A DNA stretch of 64,000 nt from Candidatus Lloydbacteria bacterium RIFCSPHIGHO2_02_FULL_50_18 (GCA_001821395.1 MHLM01000015.1:2293-66292), one strand, 5' to 3'; positions 1,998-62,854 are shown, numbered from the stretch's first letter. Numbers and translations: made by a program. The notes: generated by a model from the letters alone, not told the origin.

Positions 1998-2240
1998 CTA
2001 TTTTTTCAGAAAAATCCACACAAATTGAACCCCATACCACAGATACCATGCTAACCATAAAACGAAATATGGTTGCAACTGGTGCAACTAATAGAATAAA
2101 TATATGCAATTTTTAAAATTAAGTCAAAAAATGGACATACTGAAGCCCTTTTCTGCCATTCTCGCTTCAAGAATGAACGGAGTGTCATTAGGAAAAATTG
2201 GTCGCGCAAAGCTCTTCGATTCCTGTTGGAGGAAATTCCA

Positions 2241-2280
2241 ATGCCGGGAATCTCGGCTACCGCCGCGGGTGATATTCAAT
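2241..2280. repeat. tRNA-Pro 3'-end fragment (atgccgggaatc) fused to a conserved 34-nt element GGAATCTCGGCTACCGCCGCGGGTGATATTCAAT; attR-like scar
   Basis: 12 nt identical to the tRNA-Pro T-stem/T-loop region at 2531-2542. The following 34 nt are identical to 22816-22849, and a degenerate copy lies at 15126-15158. Confidence 0.6.
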
Positions 2281-2480
2281 CTCGACGACTCGATAATGAA
2301 TATCCTTTCGATTCTCGTCGACAGTGCCGCAGAGTGAGAATCGGTCACGAGTTACTAAGCTTTTTATTTCGCTACGCTCATAAAAATCTAAGTACTCTCG
2401 ACCCCGACTCGCTCGCCTCGAAGACTCGGCATAGCTCCGTCTTTCGATCCCCGGGCGGGACTGAGGCAGCTCAGTCCCTC

Positions 2481-2532
2481 ATCCCGACCATATGAAAAAA
2501 CACCTGATGGCGTTTTTTCATATGGTCGGGAT
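2481..2532 (-). terminator. Extended palindrome / intrinsic terminator overlapping the tRNA-Pro 3' end
   Basis: ATCCCGACCATATG-AAAAAA-[CACCTGATGGCG]-TTTTTT-CATATGGTCGGGAT. The outer arms are an inverted copy of the tRNA 3' terminus. The inner stem is flanked by A6/T6 tracts, so it could terminate in either direction. Confidence 0.6.
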
Positions 2533-2596
2533 GCCGGGAATCGAACCCGGTTCTTGCGAACCCGAATCGCAAATACTACCGGTGTACTACATCCCG
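2523..2596 (-). tRNA. tRNA-Pro (anticodon CGG), CCA encoded
   Basis: Manual fold: acceptor CGGGATG/CATCCCG, D-stem GTAC/GTAT, anticodon stem TGCGA/TCGCA with loop TTCGGGT (G37), T-arm CCGGG-TTCGATT-CCCGG, discriminator A, then CCA. Confidence 0.85.
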
Positions 2597-4959: not shown

Positions 4960-6525
4960 TTATTTATCGTTAATCGGATGTTTCTCCTTAGTTTCAACCA
5001 CCAGTGTACCATCTGAAAGACGGGCATCAAAACTCTGCCCGACGGCGATATCAGCAATACTGCGGACCACCTTTCCGCCGTGAGTGAGAATGCTATAGCC
5101 GAGTTTTAATTGACGAAGCGGATCATTTTGCTGAACCGATCGCGCAGCGGAGGCAAGCGCCTCAAGGACAAAGCGGCGTTGTTGCCTATACTGCTCAAGA
5201 AGTGTCTTGCTCGAATAATGCAGCTCATCCTTTTTGGATGATAATTGACGCGCAAGGAGAAGGACCGAATCATTGAAGCTCGTGATGAGCAGGCGAAATG
5301 GTTGAATAAGCACATCGAGCCGTGTTTCCAATTCACCGCTTACGGTTCGCAGGGCATCTTGCATCCGCCACACATCCTGCTCGAAGCGAACGATCAACCC
5401 TCGGGAGAGCGTTTGCAGTTCGTGTATCGTATGCTCCCACGACGCATTGAGGAGGATGGTCGTTGCCGTCGGGGTCGATGGTGCGTAGTCGGCAACAAGC
5501 TGCACGAGCGGCACATCCTTGTCGTGCCCGATGGCACAGATGGTAACGGCGGGAAACGTCGCAACCTTGCGCACCACGTGCTCGTTATTGAAAGCCTGTA
5601 GACTCTCGAGTGACCCTCCGCCACGAACAAGCACAAGGACGTCAATATCTTTCGATTCGAGTAGTGTGAGTGCGGCAAGAATATCTTTGACGGCTCCCGC
5701 TCCTTCAACGCGTGAATCGACGAAGACCACATGATAGCCGAATCGGCCGAGATTATTGAGAAAATCGTGAATGACCGCACCGGAGCGCGATGTCACGAGA
5801 CCGATACGTATCGGATGTTCTTTAAGCTGCCGCTTCCTCTCGGGCGCAAATAGCCCTTCAAGCTCAAGTTTCTTTTTAAGTTCGTTGTAGGCCTTCTGGA
5901 ATGCCCCTTCCCCAACGAGCTCGATCGTTTCCGCACGAAAACTGAAACGTCCCGAGGGTTTATATATCTCGCTTCTTCCCTCGAGGATGACCTCAAGCCC
6001 CTCGGCGAGCGTGATTCCCGCAAGCGCAAAATCACTCATCCACATGAAGACTGAGAGCATGCTTCCGTCTTCCGCATCGCGGAGGGAGAAGTAGACTGCT
6101 TTCCCCTGCTCCTTGAAGCTCGTCACCTCACCCTTCACGGTCGCGCGCATGCGCCAGAGCTCCCGATTCACGATGTCGAGATAGGTGCTGACGGAATAGA
6201 GCATGCGTTCCTCCTTCGGCTTTGGCAACACCATTCCATCCACAATGTAGGAAATAGCGGTAATCTCATCGGGCTTTTGTCCAAAGGCTGCCTTTGGAGT
6301 TTCCGCACCGCCGCCTTCTTTGACCATATTGAGGATTGCAGCTCCATATTGATTGTACTTCGCTTCCTTGATGCCCTTGATGGCCGTCAGCTCTTCCTTG
6401 GTCTTCGGCATTGCTCGCACGATCTCGTCGATCGCGCTGTTCGGCAGCACGCGAAAAAGCTCAACGCCTTTCTTTGCCGCCTCACTCTCCCTCCATGCAT
6501 GTAATACGCTTCGCAGATTTGCCAT
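4960..6525 (-). CDS. xseA: Exodeoxyribonuclease VII large subunit with an N-terminal HRDC domain
   Basis: OB-fold plus the XseA catalytic core (IGLVTSRSGAVIHDFLNNLGRF...VLVLVRGGGSLESLQAFNNE). The N-terminal ~75 aa form an HRDC-like domain (LFRVLPNSAIDEIVRAMPKTKEELTAIKGI...YGAAIL). Confidence 0.85.
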   Translation of the reverse strand: MANLRSVLHAWRESEAAKKGVELFRVLPNSAIDEIVRAMPKTKEELTAIKGIKEAKYNQYGAAILNMVKEGGGAETPKAAFGQKPDEITAISYIVDGMVLPKPKEERMLYSVSTYLDIVNRELWRMRATVKGEVTSFKEQGKAVYFSLRDAEDGSMLSVFMWMSDFALAGITLAEGLEVILEGRSEIYKPSGRFSFRAETIELVGEGAFQKAYNELKKKLELEGLFAPERKRQLKEHPIRIGLVTSRSGAVIHDFLNNLGRFGYHVVFVDSRVEGAGAVKDILAALTLLESKDIDVLVLVRGGGSLESLQAFNNEHVVRKVATFPAVTICAIGHDKDVPLVQLVADYAPSTPTATTILLNASWEHTIHELQTLSRGLIVRFEQDVWRMQDALRTVSGELETRLDVLIQPFRLLITSFNDSVLLLARQLSSKKDELHYSSKTLLEQYRQQRRFVLEALASAARSVQQNDPLRQLKLGYSILTHGGKVVRSIADIAVGQSFDARLSDGTLVVETKEKHPINDK

Positions 6526-15111: not shown

Positions 15112-15160
15112 TGTGGACCATAACGGAATCTCCACCTACCGTGGCGGGTGGATTCTCCTA
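15112..15160. repeat. Degenerate direct repeat of the tRNA-Ala(GGC) 3' end plus a degenerate copy of the conserved arm element; putative attR of the defense island
   Basis: gtggaccat matches the tRNA-Ala(GGC) acceptor 3' strand at 22272-22280. The following aacggaatctccacctaccgtggcgggtggattctcc is ~75% identical to GGAATCTCGGCTACCGCCGCGGGTGATATTC. Confidence 0.5.
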
Positions 15161-15177
15161 CGGAACAATACAAATTG

Positions 15178-17535
15178 CTATTTTACCCCCGCGTACAAAC
15201 TTCTCTGGAAATCAAAAAAGGTCGAGCGAATAGCGTCTACATCCCCGAGAATATCCACCGCATCAGCAATAGCGTGATATTTCAAATTGAGCAATTGCGG
15301 GAGCTTTTCTTCGTCGAGCTCCTCGACTCCGCGCTCGACATACTTAGCAAGTACGAACTCAAGAAAATCTTTTTGATCATCATTCAATCCGCCCAAGATT
15401 GCACTCTTGGCACCCAAAACACGATCGACGCGCGAGATTGGCTGTACGCAAAACGAGACATAAGCGAGCACGTCAAACAAATCACTGTTTTCCGCATCGA
15501 TCATCTTTTGAAGTATCTCAAGCTCATCCTTCCCATACCCCGCCTCAGCAAGCTTATCGAGAAATACTTTTCTCGTACTTGGATTGGCCCAAATTTCACG
15601 AAGCTCAACTTCATTCTTATAAAATGAAGGGAGTGCACCGAACATGTTGTTCATAAATTCCTCTACCGAGATCGGCTTCCCATCTGCGCTCCAAAATGAG
15701 GTGGAGATCATATGCTTTATTTCTCGATCCTTTCCATCCCGCAACTTTATTTTAAGCTTTTGTATGGGTGGAGGCACATCGCACACGCACGGCTTCTGTC
15801 CGCACACAACGCATGGCGCGGTCGGAGGCTTCACACACACACAGGGCGTCATACCACATGCTGCACAGGGTTGTTTCGGCGCTGGCTCCACTATCGGCTC
15901 ATCAATGGGCTCTCCGTCCCACTCAGGGTCAGCGAAGTGATGATACGCATCCACAAAGTCATAGATAGTGAAATACTCCTTTCCGTCAAAGAGCCGAGTT
16001 CCTCGTCCAACGATCTGCTTAAACTCAATCATGGAGTTTACGGGGCGCATCAGTACAATATTGCGAATGTTTCGCGCATCGACTCCCGTCGAGAGCTTTT
16101 GTGAGGTAGTGAGGATGGTGGGGATACTTTTTTCATTATCCTGGAATTCTTTCAAATACTGATCCCCGCGAGCACCGTCATTGGCCGTCACGCGCACACA
16201 ATAATTTGGCTCAGTGCTCTCTTTCATCTGATTCACCAAGTCACGCACTGCGAGTGCATGGTCTTGTGTTGCGCAAAAGATAATAGTCTTTTCGTTTTGA
16301 TTTATCTCCTCAAGTATGACGCGTACACGCTTCGCCTCACGCTCCTTGATCTCGATGATCTTATTAAAGTCCGCCTCTTCGTAGATTTTTCCTTCCTCCA
16401 CTTCCCCCTCGATGATCTGGTCGTCCGAAGTGTACACATAATCATCCATCGTCGTCTTGATACGCTTCACCTTAAATGGCGTCAGAAATCCGTCATTCAC
16501 TCCGGTTTTGAGCGAGTAAGTGTATACGGGCTTTCCGAAATAGTTGTAGGTGTCCACGTTGTCTTGCCTGCGTGGCGTCGCGGTGAGCCCAAGGTGTACC
16601 GCAGGCGCGAAGTGCTCGAGGATCGCTCGCCAATTGCTCTCATCGTTCGCACCCCCACGATGACACTCGTCAATAATGATCAGATCAAAAAAGTCCGAGG
16701 GATAGTCCCCGAAATATGGCGAACCATTTTGCCCGCTCATAAAAGTCTGGAATATGGTGAAAAAGATGCTCCCATTTGTGGGCACAGCACCCTTCTTCCG
16801 TATATCAAGTGGATTAATGCGCACAAGTGCATCCTCATGGAAAGCCGAGAATGAATTAAATGCCTGATTTGCTAAAATATTTCTGTCGGCAAGAAAGAGG
16901 ATTCTCGGGCGCCTCCCTCCATCTCGCGCCAAGTTCCATCGTGACTGAAAAAGCTTCCACGCGATCTGAAATGCAATAAAAGTTTTCCCCGTGCCTGTCG
17001 CAAGCGTTAGAAGCGCCCGTTGCTTGTTTTCCGCAATTGCATCGAGTGTATTGTTCACGGCAATTTCTTGATAGTATCGCGCACTCTTTGTGCCGTTCAT
17101 ATCCTCAAACGGGACAGCGGCAAATTTCTCCTTCCATGCATTTTGGTCAGAATAGACCATGTTCCATAATTCATCAGGAGTCGGGAAACGTTCCACATAT
17201 TTCTCCGCACCCGTCTCCATGCATATCTCGTATATTTCTTTGCCGTTAGTGGCATAGGTATATTTGATCTCAAGTTTCTCAGCATAAGCCTTCGCCTGTG
17301 CGACGCCCTCCGTCGCCGAGAGTCCCTCATGCTTTGCCTCCACAACCCCGATCTTCATGTTTTTATAAACCAAAATATAGTCAGCGATCTCAGGCTTCCC
17401 GCGTACTCCACCAGTCATAATGCGTCCGAGGGTTATGCGAAACTCCCGCAGGACCTTCGATCCCTCGATCTCGCCCCATCCGGCTTCTTTCAGCTTCGGA
17501 TCAACATATTCCGCTCGTGTTTCAGATTCATTCAT
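15178..17535 (-). CDS. hsdR: Type I restriction enzyme R subunit
   Basis: N-terminal PD-(D/E)XK (ADYILVY...VVEAKH), helicase motifs LATGTGKT / DECH, typical HsdR layout. The C-terminal third carries an unusual Cys-rich tandem motif. Confidence 0.9.
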   Translation of the reverse strand: MNESETRAEYVDPKLKEAGWGEIEGSKVLREFRITLGRIMTGGVRGKPEIADYILVYKNMKIGVVEAKHEGLSATEGVAQAKAYAEKLEIKYTYATNGKEIYEICMETGAEKYVERFPTPDELWNMVYSDQNAWKEKFAAVPFEDMNGTKSARYYQEIAVNNTLDAIAENKQRALLTLATGTGKTFIAFQIAWKLFQSRWNLARDGGRRPRILFLADRNILANQAFNSFSAFHEDALVRINPLDIRKKGAVPTNGSIFFTIFQTFMSGQNGSPYFGDYPSDFFDLIIIDECHRGGANDESNWRAILEHFAPAVHLGLTATPRRQDNVDTYNYFGKPVYTYSLKTGVNDGFLTPFKVKRIKTTMDDYVYTSDDQIIEGEVEEGKIYEEADFNKIIEIKEREAKRVRVILEEINQNEKTIIFCATQDHALAVRDLVNQMKESTEPNYCVRVTANDGARGDQYLKEFQDNEKSIPTILTTSQKLSTGVDARNIRNIVLMRPVNSMIEFKQIVGRGTRLFDGKEYFTIYDFVDAYHHFADPEWDGEPIDEPIVEPAPKQPCAACGMTPCVCVKPPTAPCVVCGQKPCVCDVPPPIQKLKIKLRDGKDREIKHMISTSFWSADGKPISVEEFMNNMFGALPSFYKNEVELREIWANPSTRKVFLDKLAEAGYGKDELEILQKMIDAENSDLFDVLAYVSFCVQPISRVDRVLGAKSAILGGLNDDQKDFLEFVLAKYVERGVEELDEEKLPQLLNLKYHAIADAVDILGDVDAIRSTFFDFQRSLYAGVK

Positions 17536-18185
17536 GATGATTGTTTCGCACCATACTGCTTAACTGCCACACCGTCATATCTTTCTTTGAGTCCCTCATA
17601 AATAAGACTCACGAGGGGCTTATAATCATCGGCATGATCGATTTGCGCAAGCGCCTGACGGTAGCGATTCTTATTTTCCTTTTCTACTTTTATTGATATA
17701 CCAATTAACCCGTAGCGCTCCAAAATCAAATTCGCAGCAAGACGAGCAGTGCGTCCGTTCCCATCCCGAAATGGATGAACGCAGGTGATAGAATAATGCA
17801 ACCATGCCGCCAGATGAATAACTCGCTCAACCGTCTGATGGACTTTCGCCATGCTTACATTTTTTCCTCTTATTATTCCCTCTGCTTTATCTAGCGCTTG
17901 TAATTTTTTCTGCAACTCGACCTCCCTTTCGTTCATGAGGTCATTTATTTTTGAGTGATGAGGGGGGACGTGACTTGAGTCTGTTATTTCAAGATTTTCC
18001 GTTCTATACTTTCCCGCAATATCAGGCCAGGCATCTTTGAATATTTCCCGATGAATTTCCTTGATCGTTTCAATCGAAATACCCTTGTGTGATCGTGCAA
18101 ATTTTCTTACAAAACGAGAAGCGCGGATCACTCCAATCGCTTCTCGTTTTTGTAACTCTTCTTCCGAGCGCGGACACTCTACCAT
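17532..18185 (-). CDS. Fic/Doc family protein (AMPylator-type toxin domain)
   Basis: Canonical Fic motif HPFRDGNGRTARL. Confidence 0.85.
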   Translation of the reverse strand: MVECPRSEEELQKREAIGVIRASRFVRKFARSHKGISIETIKEIHREIFKDAWPDIAGKYRTENLEITDSSHVPPHHSKINDLMNEREVELQKKLQALDKAEGIIRGKNVSMAKVHQTVERVIHLAAWLHYSITCVHPFRDGNGRTARLAANLILERYGLIGISIKVEKENKNRYRQALAQIDHADDYKPLVSLIYEGLKERYDGVAVKQYGAKQSS

Positions 18186-18193
18186 GGCAATGC

Positions 18194-18388
18194 TTACGCT
18201 ACTTTTAGCGCAAGTTTTTCAAATTCCCCGCGATCAAGCTTGCTTCCCTCAAGCGCACTCGAATAATAGGCATGCTCAATATCCCAACTTTTTTCAAGGG
18301 CGGATTTTTGTTTTGGCGTAAGCTGAGAAATCTGTCGTTCTGCAACTTTCTTACTCGCCATTAACTGTACGAGCCGTAGATTCTTCAT
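18194..18388 (-). CDS. FicA-like small protein carrying the Fic inhibitory motif (SxxxEG); separate antitoxin-like gene or frameshifted N-terminus of Fic
   Basis: 64 aa; ...IEHAYYSSALEGSKLD contains S-x-x-x-E-G. Its stop lies 8 nt upstream of the Fic ATG, in a different frame. Confidence 0.5.
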   Translation of the reverse strand: MKNLRLVQLMASKKVAERQISQLTPKQKSALEKSWDIEHAYYSSALEGSKLDRGEFEKLALKVA

Positions 18389-18480
18389 GGATATGACTAT
18401 ACCACTATTTGACTATTTTACAACTCCTCATGTTTCAGGGGTGACTCCTTGGCCTTGAAAGGTGTCTCCTCGGAAACTGC

Positions 18481-19686
18481 TCACAACTCCCCAGCAAAGG
18501 CCTTTTTCAACACTGATTTTTTAAGCTCCTCAATATCAGCAAGTTTTTGCCCGTAGATTCCTTCAAGTTTTTTTGTCTGCTCCGCAAGCGCATCGAGCTT
18601 TTTGACGATGGTTTTTTGCTCTGAGACAGATGGAAATGGAAACCGCTCATGCTCAAACGTTGCCATGTTGATATTGGCCTGCGCACTTCCTTTTCCTTTT
18701 GCCTGGAGTACTGCCTTAAATGATTGCAAAAGATACTCGACAAAATTAGTATCTGCAATTTTGGGATTAGCAACAAGTCCGATCACGCTATCAGGAAAAC
18801 ACGCATCGAAATTCAGAATTCCAGTTTCTGCGATATTCGCCGCAATCGTAATGCAGATAGTTCCTCTCGGCCACAGCTTGCTCTGCGCCAGTCCCGCCTC
18901 GCTATACGACTGTGAGTACTCCACAATAAAGTGTCCAGAATTTCGAATATCTCCCGTCTGAATAAAGGGGTACTTTCCGCCATAGAGTTTTTTGTCGTTT
19001 CTTGGGCGATGCTTAGATTTTCCTCTGCCGAATTGCAGGGAGACTTCTTCTAGCGTCTTTTTCTCCCATTTCGAATTTTCAAAAACCCCCTGCAAATACG
19101 ATTCAAAAAGTTCGCGGGAATTCTTCAAATTCTTCTCCGCATTCTCCTTCGCCTTCTCCACTCCCTCAAAAACCTCATCAAGAATTTTTACGATGCGCTT
19201 TTGCTCGATCGCAGAAGGAAAAGGTATCTCAACCTCTTTTAATTTTGTTCCAGAAAGTTCCTTAAAAGTTGTACCACTACCCAAACTATTCAAAAGTTCA
19301 ACTGAATCTTTCAAAAAATAATAGAGAAATTTTGTATCAAGATTTTTATTCGGTATTAATCCCTTACACCCCTGATTTGTTGAAATTTCTTTTGTGTTTA
19401 TCGCCAAGTGACCAATCGGAGCACGGGTAGACAAAATAATCGAGTTGGGTGGAATGATTTTTGCTGACGACCTTTCTAATCCAGCCTTTGAAATTTTTCG
19501 TTCTGTTTCCTCAACGTATATTTTCCTAAGTCTCCCCATGTCTTTGGGTGTGATCCACAAAATATTTCCATCCCAGTACCTCAAAACGCCCGTTTTAGGA
19601 GTTCCTCCGTTTACAATCTCGCAAACCTCCCCAAGTTTTTTTATTTGCCAGTTAGTTTTCATAGTGAGAAATAATTTGCTTTCCAT
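18481..19686 (-). CDS. hsdS: Type I restriction-modification specificity subunit
   Basis: Two target-recognition-domain halves with conserved HsdS N-terminal and central repeats (EVCEIVNGGTPKTG...; ...VSEQKTIVKKLDAL). Confidence 0.85.
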   Translation of the reverse strand: MESKLFLTMKTNWQIKKLGEVCEIVNGGTPKTGVLRYWDGNILWITPKDMGRLRKIYVEETERKISKAGLERSSAKIIPPNSIILSTRAPIGHLAINTKEISTNQGCKGLIPNKNLDTKFLYYFLKDSVELLNSLGSGTTFKELSGTKLKEVEIPFPSAIEQKRIVKILDEVFEGVEKAKENAEKNLKNSRELFESYLQGVFENSKWEKKTLEEVSLQFGRGKSKHRPRNDKKLYGGKYPFIQTGDIRNSGHFIVEYSQSYSEAGLAQSKLWPRGTICITIAANIAETGILNFDACFPDSVIGLVANPKIADTNFVEYLLQSFKAVLQAKGKGSAQANINMATFEHERFPFPSVSEQKTIVKKLDALAEQTKKLEGIYGQKLADIEELKKSVLKKAFAGEL

Positions 19687-20821
19687 TCTGTATCAATTGG
19701 TCGTAAGTGAGAATGTCTATATCATGTAAACTAGAGTTTAAAAAATGAAGAGCTTTTTTCTCATCCTCAGTAAAGGCATCTGACCGACCGAGAATGAGCT
19801 GGACTCTTGGTCTTAGTATTCGAACAGAGTGCTGAATCGACAAAGTTTTTTTATAGTCTTCGATTCTTTGTAAATAAATTAAGGACTGACCAATTGCTTC
19901 CGAGAAAGGGCTCGTAGGGAAATGGCAACGATGCGAAGTATCATATCTAAACAGCGGGCTGCCGACACTTGGCCTCTTAACTTCAATGAGGCTGATAAAT
20001 CCATCGGGCGTTTCGAGTACGATGTCTGCCTCAGAGTTATCTTCTCCAATCTTCCTGAATGTGTGCTTTTTGTAGTACTCGACTCCAAAAACCCACAAAT
20101 TAGCCCCAATCCATTTATGAAACACACCCTCTGGTTGATTTGCGTGATATTTCTTTAGTGCACCATTTCCTTTTATTGCCTCAAGGAAATTCACGTCAGA
20201 TTCGATGCTTAAAAGGTATTCTAAATTAGCAATAGCCTCTTTGTGTTCTTTTTGTTTTATTGCTGCGCTCAAACTCTCGACGTCAAGGGCATCAATATTC
20301 TCAATAAACTTCTGAAATAAACTATTTCTTTCAGCGGTGCCCAACTTATTAAAAAGCTGAAACAGCTGATCAGATGTTAATGCTTGCGACCCATGCAATA
20401 ACTGTGAAAATGCATTCTTTCGCTCCACAAGTTCACTTACGTTTTGATCAGTAAATTTTAAATTTTCCTTAGAAGTTAAGTCCAGTAAATCTAATGATTC
20501 AAGAAACTTAATAAAGCGAGTAAGTGCTCCTCCATGAAAACTGAAAGATTGATTATGTGGTATGCCAGTATCTTTTGAAAATCTTTGAATGCGCAATGAA
20601 AACCCAGTGGTGTCTTGATTATAAATAGCGGTTATTTCTTGCACTGCGCTTTCGCGTATGACCTCAAAAACTTTCTTTTCTTTTTGATCGTTATAAAAAT
20701 CTTTAAAATCTTTTAGCTCAAATACTTTTGAAATGTATCTGATGTTCCCATCTTTCCCAATCGCCCTACTCACATAAGTAAGTGCGGGGTCTTTTTTGAT
20801 CGCATACTCTCCATTGCTCAT
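19652..20821 (-). CDS. Shedu-like (DUF4263-type) PD-(D/E)XK nuclease embedded between hsdM and hsdS
   Basis: C-terminal nuclease core LWVFGVEYYKK...EADIVLETPDGFISLIEVKRPS (D...E-V-K). Size and layout resemble SduA. It overlaps hsdM by 4 nt and hsdS by ~11-35 nt, so it is operonic. Confidence 0.55.
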   Translation of the reverse strand: MSNGEYAIKKDPALTYVSRAIGKDGNIRYISKVFELKDFKDFYNDQKEKKVFEVIRESAVQEITAIYNQDTTGFSLRIQRFSKDTGIPHNQSFSFHGGALTRFIKFLESLDLLDLTSKENLKFTDQNVSELVERKNAFSQLLHGSQALTSDQLFQLFNKLGTAERNSLFQKFIENIDALDVESLSAAIKQKEHKEAIANLEYLLSIESDVNFLEAIKGNGALKKYHANQPEGVFHKWIGANLWVFGVEYYKKHTFRKIGEDNSEADIVLETPDGFISLIEVKRPSVGSPLFRYDTSHRCHFPTSPFSEAIGQSLIYLQRIEDYKKTLSIQHSVRILRPRVQLILGRSDAFTEDEKKALHFLNSSLHDIDILTYDQLIQNGKQIISHYEN

Positions 20822-22263
20822 AACAAGTTTTTCAATATCTGAGCACTTTCTTTATCCAATTTCTCCATTTCCTTCAAAATCTCCTTCGGGGTGCGCAGCG
20901 CTACCTCACCTCCCTTGTTTGGATTCTTTGCCGATAGGTCGAAGGTCTTCTGGTCGACGTCTTTTATGTCTATGCTCCATGAATTTTCAGAATCACCATT
21001 CGTCTCTTGGAGTTTTATAAAATCAGCAAGGTCGGCTTCGTTGAGTGCATTGGTCTTGCCGAGGTTGCGGTCGAGGTTGAGCTGATAGAACCAGACTTTT
21101 TTCGTTGGTGCACCCTTCTCAAAAAAGAGTATGACCGTTTTCACCCCTGCACCAGTGAATGTGCCACCTGGCAGGTCGAGCACGGTGTGGAGATTGCAAC
21201 TTTCAAGCAGCATTTTGCGAAGCGACACCGAAGCATTGTCGGTGTTGGAAAGAAAGGTGTTTTTGATGACCACACCCGCTTTTCCTCCGGCTTTCAGCAT
21301 TTTGATGAAATGCTGGAGAAAAAGAAATGCCGTCTCTCCCGTTTTGATAGGAAAATTCTGCTGTACCTCAGGTCTCTCTGAGCCTCCAAATGGCGGATTC
21401 GCAAGCACGATCTCATAGCGGTCTTTCTCCTGAATATCCGCAAGGTTTTCGGCAAGTGTGTTGGTGTGAATGATGTTCGGAGCCTCGATGCCATGGAGAA
21501 TCATGTTCATGATGCCAATGATGTAGGCGAGCGATTTCTTCTCCTTGCCGTAAAATGTCTTCTTCTGAAGTGTCTGCATGTCGCTTGTCGAAAGCTTCTT
21601 GCTCTCCTTCAAGTATTCAAACGCTTCCACGAGGAATCCCGCCGAGCCCACAGCCCCATCATAGACTTTATCGCCGATTTTTGGAGCGACCACCTTCACG
21701 ATGGTCTTGATGAGTGGGCGCGGGGTGTAGTACTCGCCACCATTGCGCCCTGCGTTGCCCATGTTCTTTATCTTGCCCTCGTAAAGGTGTGAAAGCTCGT
21801 GCTTTTCGCTCTGCGAGCGAAAGTGCATTCCATCCACGAGGTTCAGCACCTCGCGGAGGTTGTACCCACTTTGTATCTTGTTTTTGATCTCGCTAAAAAT
21901 TTCTCCGATCTTGTACTCGATCGTGTCGGGACTCACTGCATCCGCCTTGAATTTCTTGAAATACGGAAAAAGCTCGCGCTCGACGAAATCCTTAAGGTCA
22001 TCACCCGACAGTGCTTTGCTGTGGTCAATCTTCTTATCTCCTGTCTTGGGCACTGCCCACACTTCCCAGCGAAACTTCGGCGAGATGATATATTCGTATT
22101 TTTTACCTGCGAGCTTCGCCTCGGTCTCCTTATCCTTTTCAAGATCATCAAGATACTTGAGAAAGAGCACCCACGAAGTCTGCTCGATATAATCCAGCTC
22201 ACTCGACGCCCCCGCATCCTTACGCAATATGTCATCAATATTTTTAAAGTGTTGTTCAAACAT
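20818..22263 (-). CDS. hsdM: Type I restriction-modification DNA methyltransferase subunit
   Basis: N6-adenine MTase motifs including LANPPFGGSE and an HsdM N-terminal domain. The ORF-track N-extension to 22314 overlaps the tRNA. The real start is MFEQHF at 22263, 7 nt after the tRNA 3' end. Confidence 0.9.
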   Translation of the reverse strand: MFEQHFKNIDDILRKDAGASSELDYIEQTSWVLFLKYLDDLEKDKETEAKLAGKKYEYIISPKFRWEVWAVPKTGDKKIDHSKALSGDDLKDFVERELFPYFKKFKADAVSPDTIEYKIGEIFSEIKNKIQSGYNLREVLNLVDGMHFRSQSEKHELSHLYEGKIKNMGNAGRNGGEYYTPRPLIKTIVKVVAPKIGDKVYDGAVGSAGFLVEAFEYLKESKKLSTSDMQTLQKKTFYGKEKKSLAYIIGIMNMILHGIEAPNIIHTNTLAENLADIQEKDRYEIVLANPPFGGSERPEVQQNFPIKTGETAFLFLQHFIKMLKAGGKAGVVIKNTFLSNTDNASVSLRKMLLESCNLHTVLDLPGGTFTGAGVKTVILFFEKGAPTKKVWFYQLNLDRNLGKTNALNEADLADFIKLQETNGDSENSWSIDIKDVDQKTFDLSAKNPNKGGEVALRTPKEILKEMEKLDKESAQILKNLL

Positions 22264-22269
22264 TTTTTT

Positions 22270-22345
22270 TGGTGGACCATGGGAGAATCGAACTCCCCAC
22301 CTCTTCCATGCCATGGAAGCGCTCTACCAAATGAGCTAATGGCCC
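22270..22345 (-). tRNA. tRNA-Ala (anticodon GGC), G3:U70, CCA encoded
   Basis: Manual fold: acceptor GGGCCAT/ATGGTCC with G3:U70, anticodon stem CTTCC/GGAAG with loop ATGGCAT, T-arm GGGAG-TTCGATT-CTCCC, then ACCA. Confidence 0.85.
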
Positions 22346-22640
22346 GTAGAAAGATGATAACTTACAAATGGGTTTTCTTCAATGAAGACGGGGGGGGTCG
22401 AGTCGTGAAGGGAGTCGAAGCTTATTCGAGATCGTCATCGCAAGCTTTGTGGAGATGGCAAGTCGTGTAGTGCGTTGCCGGAGGGCAACACTGCTACGAA
22501 AAAGCCAACCGGGTGTCTGGCTTTGCGGACTTGGCTTACAGCTTCAGTACGCCTTTTCGATTTATTCAGAGCGAAGCTCTTCATAAATAACGAAAAGCCC
22601 TTCGACTCCCCGCCGCAAGTGAAGCAGTTCACTTGCTTGA

Positions 22641-22694
22641 GTCCACAGGTACAAAAAAATTACGATTTCTCGTAATTTTTTTGTACCTGTGGAC
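22641..22694 (-). terminator. Perfect 54-nt palindrome / intrinsic terminator overlapping the tRNA-Ala(CGC) 3' end
   Basis: GTCCACAGGTAC-AAAAAAA-TTACGA-ttct-TCGTAA-TTTTTTT-GTACCTGTGGAC. The 3' arm includes the first nucleotides of the tRNA 3' terminus. Confidence 0.6.
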
Positions 22695-22760
22695 TCACGG
22701 GGAGTCGAACCCCGGACTCGGCAATGCGAATGCCGTGTAATACCACTTTACTATGAGCCC
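22690..22760 (-). tRNA. tRNA-Ala (anticodon CGC), G3:U70, no CCA encoded
   Basis: Manual fold: acceptor GGGCTCA/TGAGTCC (G3:U70), anticodon stem CGGCA/TGCCG with loop TTCGCAT, T-arm CGGGG-TTCGACT-CCCCG, discriminator A. Confidence 0.8.
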
Positions 22761-22805: not shown

Positions 22806-22849
22806 GACCGTACAGGAATCTCGGCTACCGCCGCGGGTGATATTCAATT
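22806..22849. repeat. tRNA-Ala(TGC) 3'-end fragment (tggaccgtacagga) fused to the conserved 34-nt element; attR-like scar
   Basis: 14 nt identical to the acceptor/T-stem of tRNA-Ala(TGC) at 23197-23210. It is followed by aatctcggctaccgccgcgggtgatattcaat, identical to 2247-2280. Confidence 0.6.
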
Positions 22850-23141
22850 TCGTACAGGAATTTCGACGCCTACTGCGTCAGTACCCAGTTTCAATTTGAA
22901 TACAGGACTCTTCCTCTACGAGGACAGTATACCTTTCACCACAGAGAGTACTTCTTGTTTTCTAGCTCACTTCGTTCGTAAGTAAACAATGTCGTCCGTT
23001 TACTGAGGATAAGAATCCTGCCGTACAGGAATCTCTCCCCTTACAGGGGCAGTGTCCAGTTTCGATTTACTCAAAATAGGAATTTCTCGTAAATATCGAA
23101 ACAGGCTTCGAGTCCTTACGCAAGCAATGCAGATTGCTTGC

Positions 23142-23206
23142 TACGGTCCACACCATATAAGAAAAAACTGCCTTACGGCAGTTTTTACTTTATGGTGTGG
23201 ACCGTA
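23142..23206 (-). terminator. Extended hairpin / terminator overlapping the tRNA-Ala(TGC) 3' end
   Basis: ctacggtccacaccata-aagaaaaaa-CTGCC-ttac-GGCAG-ttttta-ctttatggtgtggaccgta: GC stem flanked by A/T tracts. The outer arms are an inverted copy of the tRNA acceptor 3' strand. Confidence 0.55.
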
Positions 23207-23270
23207 CAGGACTCGAACCTGCCACCCCCGCATTGCAAATGCGGTGCTCTACCAGATGAGCTAACGGCCC
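23198..23270 (-). tRNA. tRNA-Ala (anticodon TGC), G3:U70
   Basis: Manual fold: acceptor GGGCCGT/ACGGTCC (G3:U70), anticodon stem CCGCA/TGCGG with loop TTTGCAA, T-arm GCAGG-TTCGAGT-CCTGT. Confidence 0.85.
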
Positions 23271-61120: not shown

Positions 61121-61411
61121 TCAGATCGAAAACGCAGACGCGACGACCGTGCGTATATCCTTCTCAAATTTCAGTGAAACGCCTTCACCTTTTGCGCACG
61201 TGATCGCATAGGCATCTATATACGCTTCGGCGAACCGTTTTACGGCAACATGCACCGCTTTGATCTGTCCGATATTTACGAGGCAATCGCCCTGCTTATC
61301 GGACTCGACCGAACGCTTGATGCCTTCGATCTGCCCTTGGATACGATTGAGGCGATGAAGCAACGCTTCTCGCTCATCTGCGGTCTTATTTAATTCTTGT
61401 GAATTTTTCAT
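61121..61411 (-). CDS. CsoR/RcnR-family (DUF156) metalloregulator, CstR-like
   Basis: LLHRLNRIQGQIEGIKRSVE helix. Conserved Cys in DCLVNIG and ITCAKGEG. The CsoR His position is Tyr, giving a Cys...Cys arrangement. Confidence 0.85.
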   Translation of the reverse strand: MKNSQELNKTADEREALLHRLNRIQGQIEGIKRSVESDKQGDCLVNIGQIKAVHVAVKRFAEAYIDAYAITCAKGEGVSLKFEKDIRTVVASAFSI

Positions 61412-62563: not shown

Positions 62564-62854
62564 TTACATGAGATACGCCGACGCAATAATAGTGCGAATG
62601 TTGTTCTCAAATTTTGTTGAAACGCCCTCCTTCCGTGCACAACTGAGCGCATACGTTTCTACATATGCTTCAGCAAAATGCTTTACTGCGGAATGCACTG
62701 CTTTCACCTGTCCGAGGTTTGTAAGACAATTATCCTGCTTACTCGTTTCGATAGAACGTTTAATACCTTCGATTTGCCCTTGAATACGATTAAGACGATG
62801 AAGCAATGCCTCCCGCGCCAGATCGCGCGGTGTTACTTCGGCGGTTTTTTTCAT
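62564..62854 (-). CDS. CsoR/RcnR-family (DUF156) regulator paralog, CstR-like
   Basis: LLHRLNRIQGQIEGIKRSIE...DNCLTNLG...LSCARKEG; ~75% identical to the paralog at 61121-61411. Heads a grx-rhodanese-NUDIX operon. Confidence 0.85.
   Translation of the reverse strand: MKKTAEVTPRDLAREALLHRLNRIQGQIEGIKRSIETSKQDNCLTNLGQVKAVHSAVKHFAEAYVETYALSCARKEGVSTKFENNIRTIIASAYLM

Follow-up and report, generated by a model that had tools for sequence, protein, structure and literature searches.

The region between positions 2241 and 2596 of a 64-kb window (the whole stretch of DNA analyzed here) from Candidatus Lloydbacteria bacterium RIFCSPHIGHO2_02_FULL_50_18 is best explained as a tRNA-Pro gene accompanied by two adjacent copies of a miniature, protein-less DNA module, belonging to a family located at the 3′ flanks of tRNA and transfer-messenger RNA (tmRNA) genes of Patescibacteria. 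The family is apparently widespread, lineage specific, and undescribed; no description of such a module was found in the published literature (full text). Its anatomy, fold, DNA-type pairing statistics, and distribution are matters of observation, and the reading that the module is a protein-less, nonautonomous DNA insertion module targeting tRNA T-loops is given a probability of about 0.5.

Read in the direction of the tRNA, a unit consisted of the intact tRNA gene, usually a terminator-like palindrome, an inverted copy of the tRNA tail, a core of about 75 nt, and a direct copy of the tail that begins in the T-loop. The inverted copy (acceptor 3′ strand and T-stem/T-loop) was interrupted by a hairpin, H0, with the loop CTGC in the tRNA direction and GCAG on the plus strand. 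The core formed two hairpin arms, armA and armB, and the inverted and direct tail copies paired with each other, closing the core into a Y-shaped hairpin. The 9-bp stem S1, in which GGAATC plus the reverse complement of the T-stem pairs with GATTCC plus the T-stem, is the tRNA gene duplex from T-loop position ~57 through the T-stem, and H0 is located just outside it. ArmB had 4 bp and a TACC loop (variants CGAC/GTCG, CGGC/GCCG, CCAC/GTGG, and CGCC/GGCG), and armA, with 7+3 bp and a variable tip, was preceded by the junction CGGGTG and followed by the junction CCTTTC. The far junction read GGTAGYCGA/GATTCC (slash at the junction) plus the T-stem 3′ strand; the T-stem 5′ strand, which would be the second core-type half-site, was absent next to this junction, and the complementary strand lay ~90 nt away. 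Among variant cores, only the outline was universal (S1 ends, an armB loop with TAC, armA, and H0 with its GCAG loop). In 30 distinct copies, 93.9% of cells were paired, 21 of the 30 pairs showed compensatory change on both sides, and the covariation score was 0.534, compared with 0.16 for shuffled and ≤0.095 for slid controls.

All four tRNA genes predicted in the window (ARAGORN; Rfam) were on the minus strand. The features in and next to the focal region, with covariance model R1 used for the search of the type-1 module, were as follows.

2523-2596, minus strand: tRNA-Pro(CGG), intact (ARAGORN; Rfam RF00005, 56 bits)
2480-2533: perfect palindrome CATCCCGACCATATGAAAAAA, 12-nt centre, TTTTTTCATATGGTCGGGATG (read from the sequence)
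2457-2478, plus strand: H0 hairpin GGGACTGAG-GCAG-CTCAGTCCC (covariance model match at 2414-2478; family alignments)
2440-2455, plus strand: “near” copy TCTTTCGATCCCCGGG, the inverted T-loop and T-stem 3′ strand of tRNA-Pro (in the tRNA, TTCGATTCCCGG)
2336-2439, plus strand: type-2 module core GAGAATCGGTCAC ... GACCCCGACTCGC ... GCTCCGTCTTTCGAT (alignment with locus L002)
2240-2338, plus strand: complete type-1 module (cmsearch with R1, 71.1 bits, E = 5e-17; structure backed by alignment A2)
2244-2252, plus strand: S1 5′ strand of the type-1 module
2254-2265, plus strand: armB of the type-1 module, CGGC-TACC-GCCG
2266-2271, plus strand: junction CGGGTG of the type-1 module
2272-2303, plus strand: armA of the type-1 module
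2304-2309, plus strand: junction CCTTTC of the type-1 module
2310-2317, plus strand: S1 3′ strand of the type-1 module
2322-2332, plus strand: decayed H0 of the type-1 module
2241-2252, plus strand: displaced tRNA-Pro 3′ fragment (“far” copy), a direct repeat of 2531-2542 that doubles as the S1 5′ strand
2212-2232, plus strand: CTCTTCGATTCCTGTTGG, near-end remnant of a third, older module (read from the sequence)

The last ~20 nt of tRNA-Pro, from T-loop G57 to the 3′ end, are the stretch that is duplicated and inverted downstream. One arm of the palindrome at 2480-2533 is the tRNA-Pro acceptor 3′ strand plus CCA, and its centre looks like a bidirectional terminator; H0, with its family-conserved GCAG loop, branches from this palindrome. 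Folded as single-stranded DNA, the minus strand of 2238-2545 reached -85 kcal/mol (z = -10.7). All three occupied flanks in the window had perfect palindromes with arms of 21 to 28 bp that included the tRNA acceptor 3′ strand and a terminator-like centre, and their inverted copies tracked the T-loop variant of each tRNA (GATT, GAGT, or GACT).

Relative to its ortholog in Parcubacteria GWA2_47_7 (locus L002), the tRNA-Pro region of the window contained ~150 additional nt at the position of the type-1 H0. This insert is the type-2 core (GAATCGGTCAC ... GACCCCGNCTCGC ... TTCGAT), which is located tRNA-proximal to the type-1 module, is missing from L002, and recurs behind tRNA-Lys in another locus (L022); it was accompanied by a new H0 and a new perfect palindrome. 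From this difference, 2241-2596 can be divided into the tRNA and two units, of which the type-2 unit is newer and the type-1 unit older. The T-stem of the remnant at 2212-2232 (CCTGT) is not that of tRNA-Pro, and the corresponding unit is intact in L002.

A preliminary description of the window had reported a 12-mer, atgccgggaatc, at 2241-2252, followed by a conserved 34-nt arm, GGAATCTCGGCTACCGCCGCGGGTGATATTCAAT. The 12-mer was indeed identical to 2531-2542 inside tRNA-Pro(CGG); it had been said to span acceptor, T-stem, and T-loop, but only the T-stem and 3 nt of the acceptor are duplicated. The 34-mer was present exactly twice in the window, at 2247-2280 and 22815-22848 (0 occurrences in 100 shuffles), and a repeat finder lengthened the match to 38 nt at 97% identity. 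The second copy was fused, as described, to a tRNA-Ala(TGC) fragment, GGACCGTACA at 22806-22814 being the reverse complement of the 3′ end of that tRNA. For a third copy, ascribed to Ala-GGC, the 75%-identical sequence GGAATCTCCACCTACCGTGGCGGGTGGATTC was present at 15125-15155, preceded by GTGGACCATAAC, but there was no tRNA gene at 15126. The window tRNA-Ala(GGC) (22270-22345) lies 7 kb from it, and the fragment at 15117-15124 has only ATGGTCCAC in common with that gene; its T-stem (CCGTT, versus CTCCC in the window Ala-GGC) resembles that of the Ala-GGC gene in locus L031 (CCGCT), a gene of another genome to which the fragment is the closer match. The junction after the T-loop nucleotides AATC, the order tRNA, spacer, arm, and fragment, and the lack of a credible open reading frame (ORF) in the ~280-bp Pro spacer were borne out by the sequence. 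The observation stands: a reverse-complemented tRNA tail (Pro, Ala-TGC, or Ala-GGC-like) precedes every copy of the 34-mer, and the arm and fragment are, as proposed, a DNA-level duplication with its junction in the T-loop and an arm derived from an element rather than from the tRNA.

The interpretation of these parts as the empty attL/attR scar of a large island was not upheld, since the 34-mer at 2247-2280 is the distal third of the ~100-nt structured type-1 module (covariance model match at 2240-2338, 71 bits). In ~40 distinct loci, the module and not a gene-bearing island filled the space between tRNA and displaced fragment, and the ~280-bp spacer behind tRNA-Pro contains two modules, one nested beside the other. 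These findings suggest that the sequence is a miniature insertion element and not a remnant of a single large island. The preliminary description had overlooked the inverted tail copy beside each gene and a variant module behind the fourth tRNA, Ala-CGC (22689-22760).

Distribution was examined with a degenerate motif from two window variants (GGAATCTC N3-4 TACCG NN GCGGGTG), which was searched in one-genome-per-species contigs, metagenomes, and viral contigs. Matches were obtained at 22 loci in the one-genome-per-species contigs, comprising 21 metagenome-assembled genomes of Patescibacteria (Saccharibacteria, Parcubacteria/Paceibacterota, Lloydbacteria, and Nomurabacteria) and one chance match in a coding region of Streptomycetaceae (Actinacidiphila), and at a further 22 loci in metagenomes. 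The strict pattern had 0 matches in IMG/VR contigs and GenBank phages; a looser pattern gave a single viral match, inside an ORF and lacking both a covariance model match and a tRNA, which was judged to be chance. In nearly all loci, the motif lay 63 to 130 nt past the tRNA or tmRNA 3′ end, on the opposite strand. The module was present in ~40 distinct Patescibacteria loci and, in the collections searched, in no other organisms, and model R1 identified 51 copies in 43 loci. Six R1 matches were in the window, namely, the complete type-1 module, the three units behind tRNA-Ala genes listed below, a partial match at 2414-2478 (19.8 bits), and 15118-15182 (18.8 bits); in total, the window held at least five copies or remnants.

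The targets were tRNAs for Gly, Pro, Arg (five anticodons), Lys, Cys, Leu, Ala, Met, Asp, Val, and Glu, together with a tRNA with the anticodon TTA and, in locus L003, tmRNA (Rfam, 87.8 bits). The suspected promiscuity of the element family was therefore real, extending to 11 amino-acid specificities, the TTA-anticodon tRNA, and tmRNA. The arm was not a chromosomal motif adjoining many non-tRNA genes, all true copies being at tRNA or tmRNA 3′ ends or remnants, and only three copies were separated from a tRNA (window 15118, L008/L014, and L036). Occupancy was patchy: 26 of 79 distinct tRNA flanks from the same loci had neither a direct nor an inverted copy of ≥8 nt.

The TTA-anticodon tRNAs, which would read UAA, were predicted by ARAGORN on module-bearing, Saccharibacteria-type contigs (L020, 1248-1321; L039, 10304-10377). 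In L008 (1100-1251, the same as L014) and L036 (1150-1400), a complete module and terminator were followed by a common conserved sequence, ...AGAACCTATTTTCAAAA...GCGTTCCCCGCGCGCT..GCGCCTCTGTGCGAAGCACAGAGCTT..., which is not a tRNA; it had no Rfam match, and the two genomes are unrelated. Tail copies of 11 to 17 nt (direct and/or inverted) without the type-1 core were found behind tRNA-Arg(GCG) in L007, tRNA-Phe in L014, tRNA-Leu(TAG) in L018, tRNA-Gly(GCC) in L040, and tRNA-Ser(CGA) in L042. Other core types sharing this layout are probable.

Five results point to the DNA level: the pairing statistics, repeats that extend beyond the gene, perfect complementarity to one tRNA strand, the lack of a promoter, and patchy occupancy with decay. 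In 43 distinct copies, the 867 cells of armA, armB, and H0 comprised 835 Watson-Crick pairs, 6 G·T pairs, 11 A·C pairs, and 15 pairs of other kinds, with no wobble enrichment on either strand. For 76 tRNAs of the same loci, the counts in the acceptor and T-stems were 850 Watson-Crick, 46 G·U, 4 A·C, and 12 of other kinds. The module helices behave as DNA palindromes without G·U tolerance, unlike these tRNAs. Direct repeats of the tRNA tail measured 8 to 76 nt (exact repeats, 8 to 27 nt; longer ones with mismatches), with exact runs of 27 nt in L044, 23 nt in L015, and 21 nt in L028. They reached into the trailer, and in L013, where 66 of 76 nt were identical, the terminator was included. The repeats copy the genomic tail and not the CCA-tailed mature tRNA. 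The tRNA-matching strand is the perfect complement of the tRNA 3′ strand rather than a copy of the 5′ strand, so that the G3·U70 pair of Ala is destroyed (A3-U70 instead). Consensus promoter scans found no promoter-like site upstream of the module on the plus strand, and in L013 a copy of the terminator abuts the module 5′ end.

These results bear directly on the possibility that the module is a structured noncoding RNA, made as a tRNA 3′ trailer or as a convergent antisense transcript, which would pair with the T-arm and acceptor and control tRNA maturation or stability. Strong covariation, the conserved loops (TACC and GCAG) and junctions (CGGGTG and CCTTTC), a fixed position and orientation relative to tRNAs, a bidirectional terminator often located between tRNA and module, and the excess of G·T over A·C pairs in S1 on the motif strand (11 versus 6) are all in keeping with such an RNA. 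The lack of wobble pairs in the other helices, the A3-U70 pair, the missing promoter, and the repeats running into trailers and terminators are not, and in addition only a minority of tRNAs carry the module, truncated copies accumulate in arrays, and no Rfam match was found even at E = 10; a noncoding RNA is therefore considered doubtful. With Rfam 15, only tRNAs passed the gathering thresholds, and relaxing the cutoff to E ≤ 10 added nothing of relevance.

Several specific identities were rejected. A tmRNA- or tRNA-like RNA from the plus strand, the ends of which could form an acceptor stem, was set aside on the basis of several copies per genome, A3-U70 in place of G3·U70, the absence of wobble pairs, and the absence of ARAGORN and Rfam predictions. 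For known self-cleaving ribozymes, no hammerhead core was seen by inspection and no Rfam match was found. Group I introns of Patescibacteria tRNAs are in the anticodon loop at position 35/36 (PMC13011429), a different tRNA position, and this identity was ruled out. tRNA-primed reverse transcription was rejected, despite a complement to the tRNA 3′ end resembling a primer binding site, because the copies carry the genomic trailer and not CCA.

Sequence comparisons suggest that the modules may be mobile. Cores behind different tRNAs of one genome were near-identical, with S1 and the patches beside H0 being tRNA specific: the cores behind Met and Asp tRNAs in L028 were identical at 75 of 75 nt, those behind Cys and Leu tRNAs in L018 were 94% identical, and the window Pro and Ala-TGC copies had in common the 34-mer and a derived ATATTCA strand of armA. 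Such cores reflect either recent spread with the target-matching parts rewritten or gene conversion confined to the core. Tandem arrays were common (window Ala-TGC, L012, L025, and L041), nested units also occurred, and decayed copies accumulated in the arrays. The additional type-2 unit of the window relative to L002 is a further sign of mobility or turnover. In line with a protein-less module, the spacers of 240 to 440 bp held no credible ORF.

In the proposed mechanism, the module would enter tRNA genes at the T-loop, a tail copy brought in by the module would restore the 3′ end of the gene, and the previous tail would be shifted outward. Entry with an incoming tail copy and a displaced old tail is the established logic of tRNA and tmRNA islands (PMC4383910). 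Repeated entries would generate tandem arrays in which older units decay. The enzyme would act in trans, its gene being located at another genomic site or on a helper element, and would probably recognize the folded hairpin, the closing stem of which reproduces the target duplex, as in folded single-stranded att sites. The folded-strand substrate and the host enzyme acting in trans are put forward more cautiously than the insertion itself, as is the suggestion that armB may stack on the closing stem in place of the other half of the T-stem. An extension, in which the element would rewrite its closing stem and H0 patches to match the entered T-arm, as a copied “guide” for a host enzyme acting on a folded single strand, is unlikely.

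Several points weigh against the insertion module. The inverted, tRNA-specific patches on both sides of H0 lack a mechanism that would explain them, and a functional RNA could likewise account for the strong covariation and for the invariant nucleotides of the loops and junctions. Conservation of the loop and junction sequences is partly an artifact of the search, because the motif fixed 20 nt. Gene conversion between old copies could yield identical cores with no new insertion. No pair of filled and empty sites was found for any one tRNA locus. A protein encoded near the region was 100% identical to an NCBI entry from a Candidatus Lloydbacteria genome, and over the 1,670 nt of the tRNA-Pro region that were compared, two other assemblies of this genome did not differ from the window. 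Relatives at 71 to 75% protein identity were missing the entire tRNA-Pro region as well as the Ala/ABC-transporter synteny and thus yielded no empty site. Neither an excised form nor a junction was observed. All-against-all clustering of 462 ORFs near modules revealed no recurrent recombinase or transposase, the only clusters being syntenic housekeeping genes and a small family of helix-turn-helix (HTH) proteins. When 16 ORFs (14 from the window and two from other loci) were scanned against Pfam, no recombinase was found either.

Members of the HTH family (L001, 2822-3484; L038, 4456-5148 and 11094-11726) are ~210 to 230 amino acids long, with an N-terminal HTH (HTH_23 as the sole Pfam match), and their genes terminate exactly at the 5′ end of a same-strand tRNA gene or overlap it.

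The remaining tRNA genes of the window and the modules associated with them were as follows (tRNAs from ARAGORN and Rfam; modules with covariance model scores).

22270-22345, minus strand: tRNA-Ala(GGC)
22689-22760, minus strand: tRNA-Ala(CGC)
23197-23270, minus strand: tRNA-Ala(TGC)
22808-22936, plus strand: distal-most unit of a tandem array of 3 to 4 units behind tRNA-Ala(TGC) (28 bits)
23021-23141, plus strand: proximal unit behind tRNA-Ala(TGC) (33 bits)
22505-22636, plus strand: variant module behind tRNA-Ala(CGC) (44 bits)
15118-15182, plus strand: remnant with far copy, armB (CCAC-CTACC-GTGG), junction, and armA 5′ strand (18.8 bits)

The distal-most Ala-TGC unit holds the second exact 34-mer and the fragment GGACCGTACAGG and is truncated in the armA apex. 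The proximal unit has a variant armB (CCCC-TTAC-AGGGG), the H0 hairpin GCAAGCAAT-GCAG-ATTGCTTGC, and a palindrome that takes in the acceptor 3′ strand. In the Ala-CGC module, the near copy CCCTTCGACTCCCCG matches the T-loop of Ala-CGC itself, and H0 reads GCAAGTGAA-GCAG-TTCACTTGC. The remnant at 15118-15182, an intact homologue of which is located behind tRNA-Ala(GGC) in L031, is broken in the armA apex and abuts the hsdR stop codon. Truncated copies (22815-22850, 22851-22897, and 15125-15160) were reduced to the far copy and armB with the junction and the 5′ strand of armA, and all broke in the armA apex, a common breakpoint that suggests a cleavage or crossover site there. The three tRNA-Ala genes (TGC, CGC, and GGC) are arranged in tandem on one strand between 22270 and 23270, 340 to 440 bp apart, with modules filling the spacers between them; a promoter-like site is directly upstream of Ala-GGC (22382-22354).

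Between tRNA-Ala(GGC) and the 15118-15182 remnant lies a 7-kb defence island (15178-22314, minus strand) encoding hsdR, a Fic-domain protein, hsdS, a 389-amino-acid protein with a Shedu SduA_C nuclease domain, and hsdM, the start of which is 7 nt past the CCA end of the tRNA. This arrangement is among the observations that would fit a classical integrase-borne island that has lost its genes, or a cis-mobilizable integrase-less derivative of one, with the arm and fragment as attR and the tRNA side as attL. A displaced 3′ fragment as a direct repeat, an intact regenerated gene, and a T-loop junction are the defining layout of tRNA and tmRNA islands (PMC4383910), tmRNA is also targeted in L003, and tandem accretion was seen. 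No integrase was found in the 7-kb island (ORFs and Pfam; hsdRMS, Fic, and Shedu-like only) or near any copy, however, and no true copy was found in IMG/VR contigs or GenBank phages. A related element with a recombinase, the absence of which would speak against the scar according to the preliminary description, was not found in the 44 loci, IMG/VR contigs, or GenBank phages. The whole “island” is a ~100-nt module in ~40 distinct loci, with only three copies apart from a tRNA, and the far junction lacks the T-stem 5′ half-site, the matching inverted copy being ~90 nt off. Independent gene loss in dozens of lineages, each time leaving the identical 100 nt, would be improbable, and an island scar is accordingly rated as quite unlikely. 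Passive template switching during replication at terminator and T-arm hairpins, with the core having no role of its own, is very improbable: the direct-inverted-direct layout with both junctions at hairpin-forming sequences matches that of fold-back rearrangements, and the gene-adjacent palindromes have perfect 21- to 28-bp arms, but the same ~75-nt core sequence and fold occupy the second junction from Saccharibacteria to Paceibacteria, and template switching cannot account for such a core in distant lineages.

As an insertion module, the element can be compared with known systems. A T-loop sublocation class of tRNA and tmRNA integration sites was reportedly described by Williams in 2002. Genomic islands and prophages integrated in these genes by tyrosine integrases are catalogued in Islander (PMC4383910). 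The module resembles such islands in its intact target, displaced 3′ fragment at the far end, T-loop junction, use of tmRNA, and tandem accretion. Unlike them, it has no genes or integrase, measures ~100 to 130 nt plus target copies, has an extra inverted target copy that pairs with the displaced fragment, and occurs as one core family across at least 11 amino-acid specificities. CIMEs (cis-mobilizable elements) are att-flanked, integrase-less derivatives of integrative elements that coexist with a parent having the same att arms. Like these, the module is short, gene poor, bounded by the target gene and a displaced fragment, and accretes newcomers; unlike the case for CIMEs, no parent with the same arms was found in the 44 loci, IMG/VR, or GenBank phages, and CIMEs lack a conserved hairpin fold. 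As in miniature inverted-repeat transposable elements, the module is small, noncoding, multicopy, and hairpin forming, with inverted ends (GGAATC / GATTCC plus T-stem), and is presumably mobilized in trans. It differs from them in that its duplication is long and variable (8 to 76 nt) and always a tRNA tail instead of a short fixed length, in that its inverted ends are rewritten for each target, and in that no parent insertion sequence with the same ends was seen.

The attP site of CTX phage, which uses host XerCD, and the attC site of integrons are folded single-stranded recombination sites. In these sites, as in the module, inverted segments ~90 nt apart anneal into a target-like duplex, stems are strictly complementary with variable sequence, and, after integration, the inverted pair is at one end beside a hybrid site. 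CTX attP needs no element-encoded recombinase, and the module likewise has none. Unlike attP and attC, the module has no dif-like or attC (GTTRRRY) consensus visible in alignments, its target is the tRNA T-arm, and it is ~100 to 200 nt long with no genes. The resemblance is one of mechanism only, and single-stranded involvement is inferred. The large ornate RNAs ROOL and GOLLD are, like the module, structured and tRNA adjacent; the module differs from them and from other Rfam families in being much smaller, lacking wobble pairs, carrying target duplications, and having no Rfam match.

Patescibacteria have tiny genomes and are thought to be poor in mobile elements. The module family spans the radiation, is tied to tRNA genes of most specificities, and adds an undescribed, gene-less kind of tRNA-targeting element, raising the questions of what host enzyme is responsible for its movement and whether that enzyme acts on folded single-stranded DNA. 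Modules mark sites of DNA accumulation, as in the type I restriction-modification / Shedu-like / Fic island of the window, and explain long perfect palindromes at tRNA 3′ ends. With model R1, annotators can label such intergenic regions and avoid miscalling them as tRNA pseudogenes or island boundaries. Were the target-copying extension true, the module would belong to a new, structure-guided class of mobile elements and would provide a general means of lodging DNA, defence islands included, at Patescibacteria tRNA genes.

Long palindromes may break assemblies. The L047 contig, from an assembly of this genome, ends at 6232, exactly at the tRNA-Pro 3′ end and the start of the palindrome with 21-bp arms, and a contig of another relative (L053) starts just upstream of the ABC-transporter gene. 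Elsewhere in the window, a 242-nt direct repeat with 72% identity was found at 61132-61373 and 62575-62816, 1.4 kb apart.

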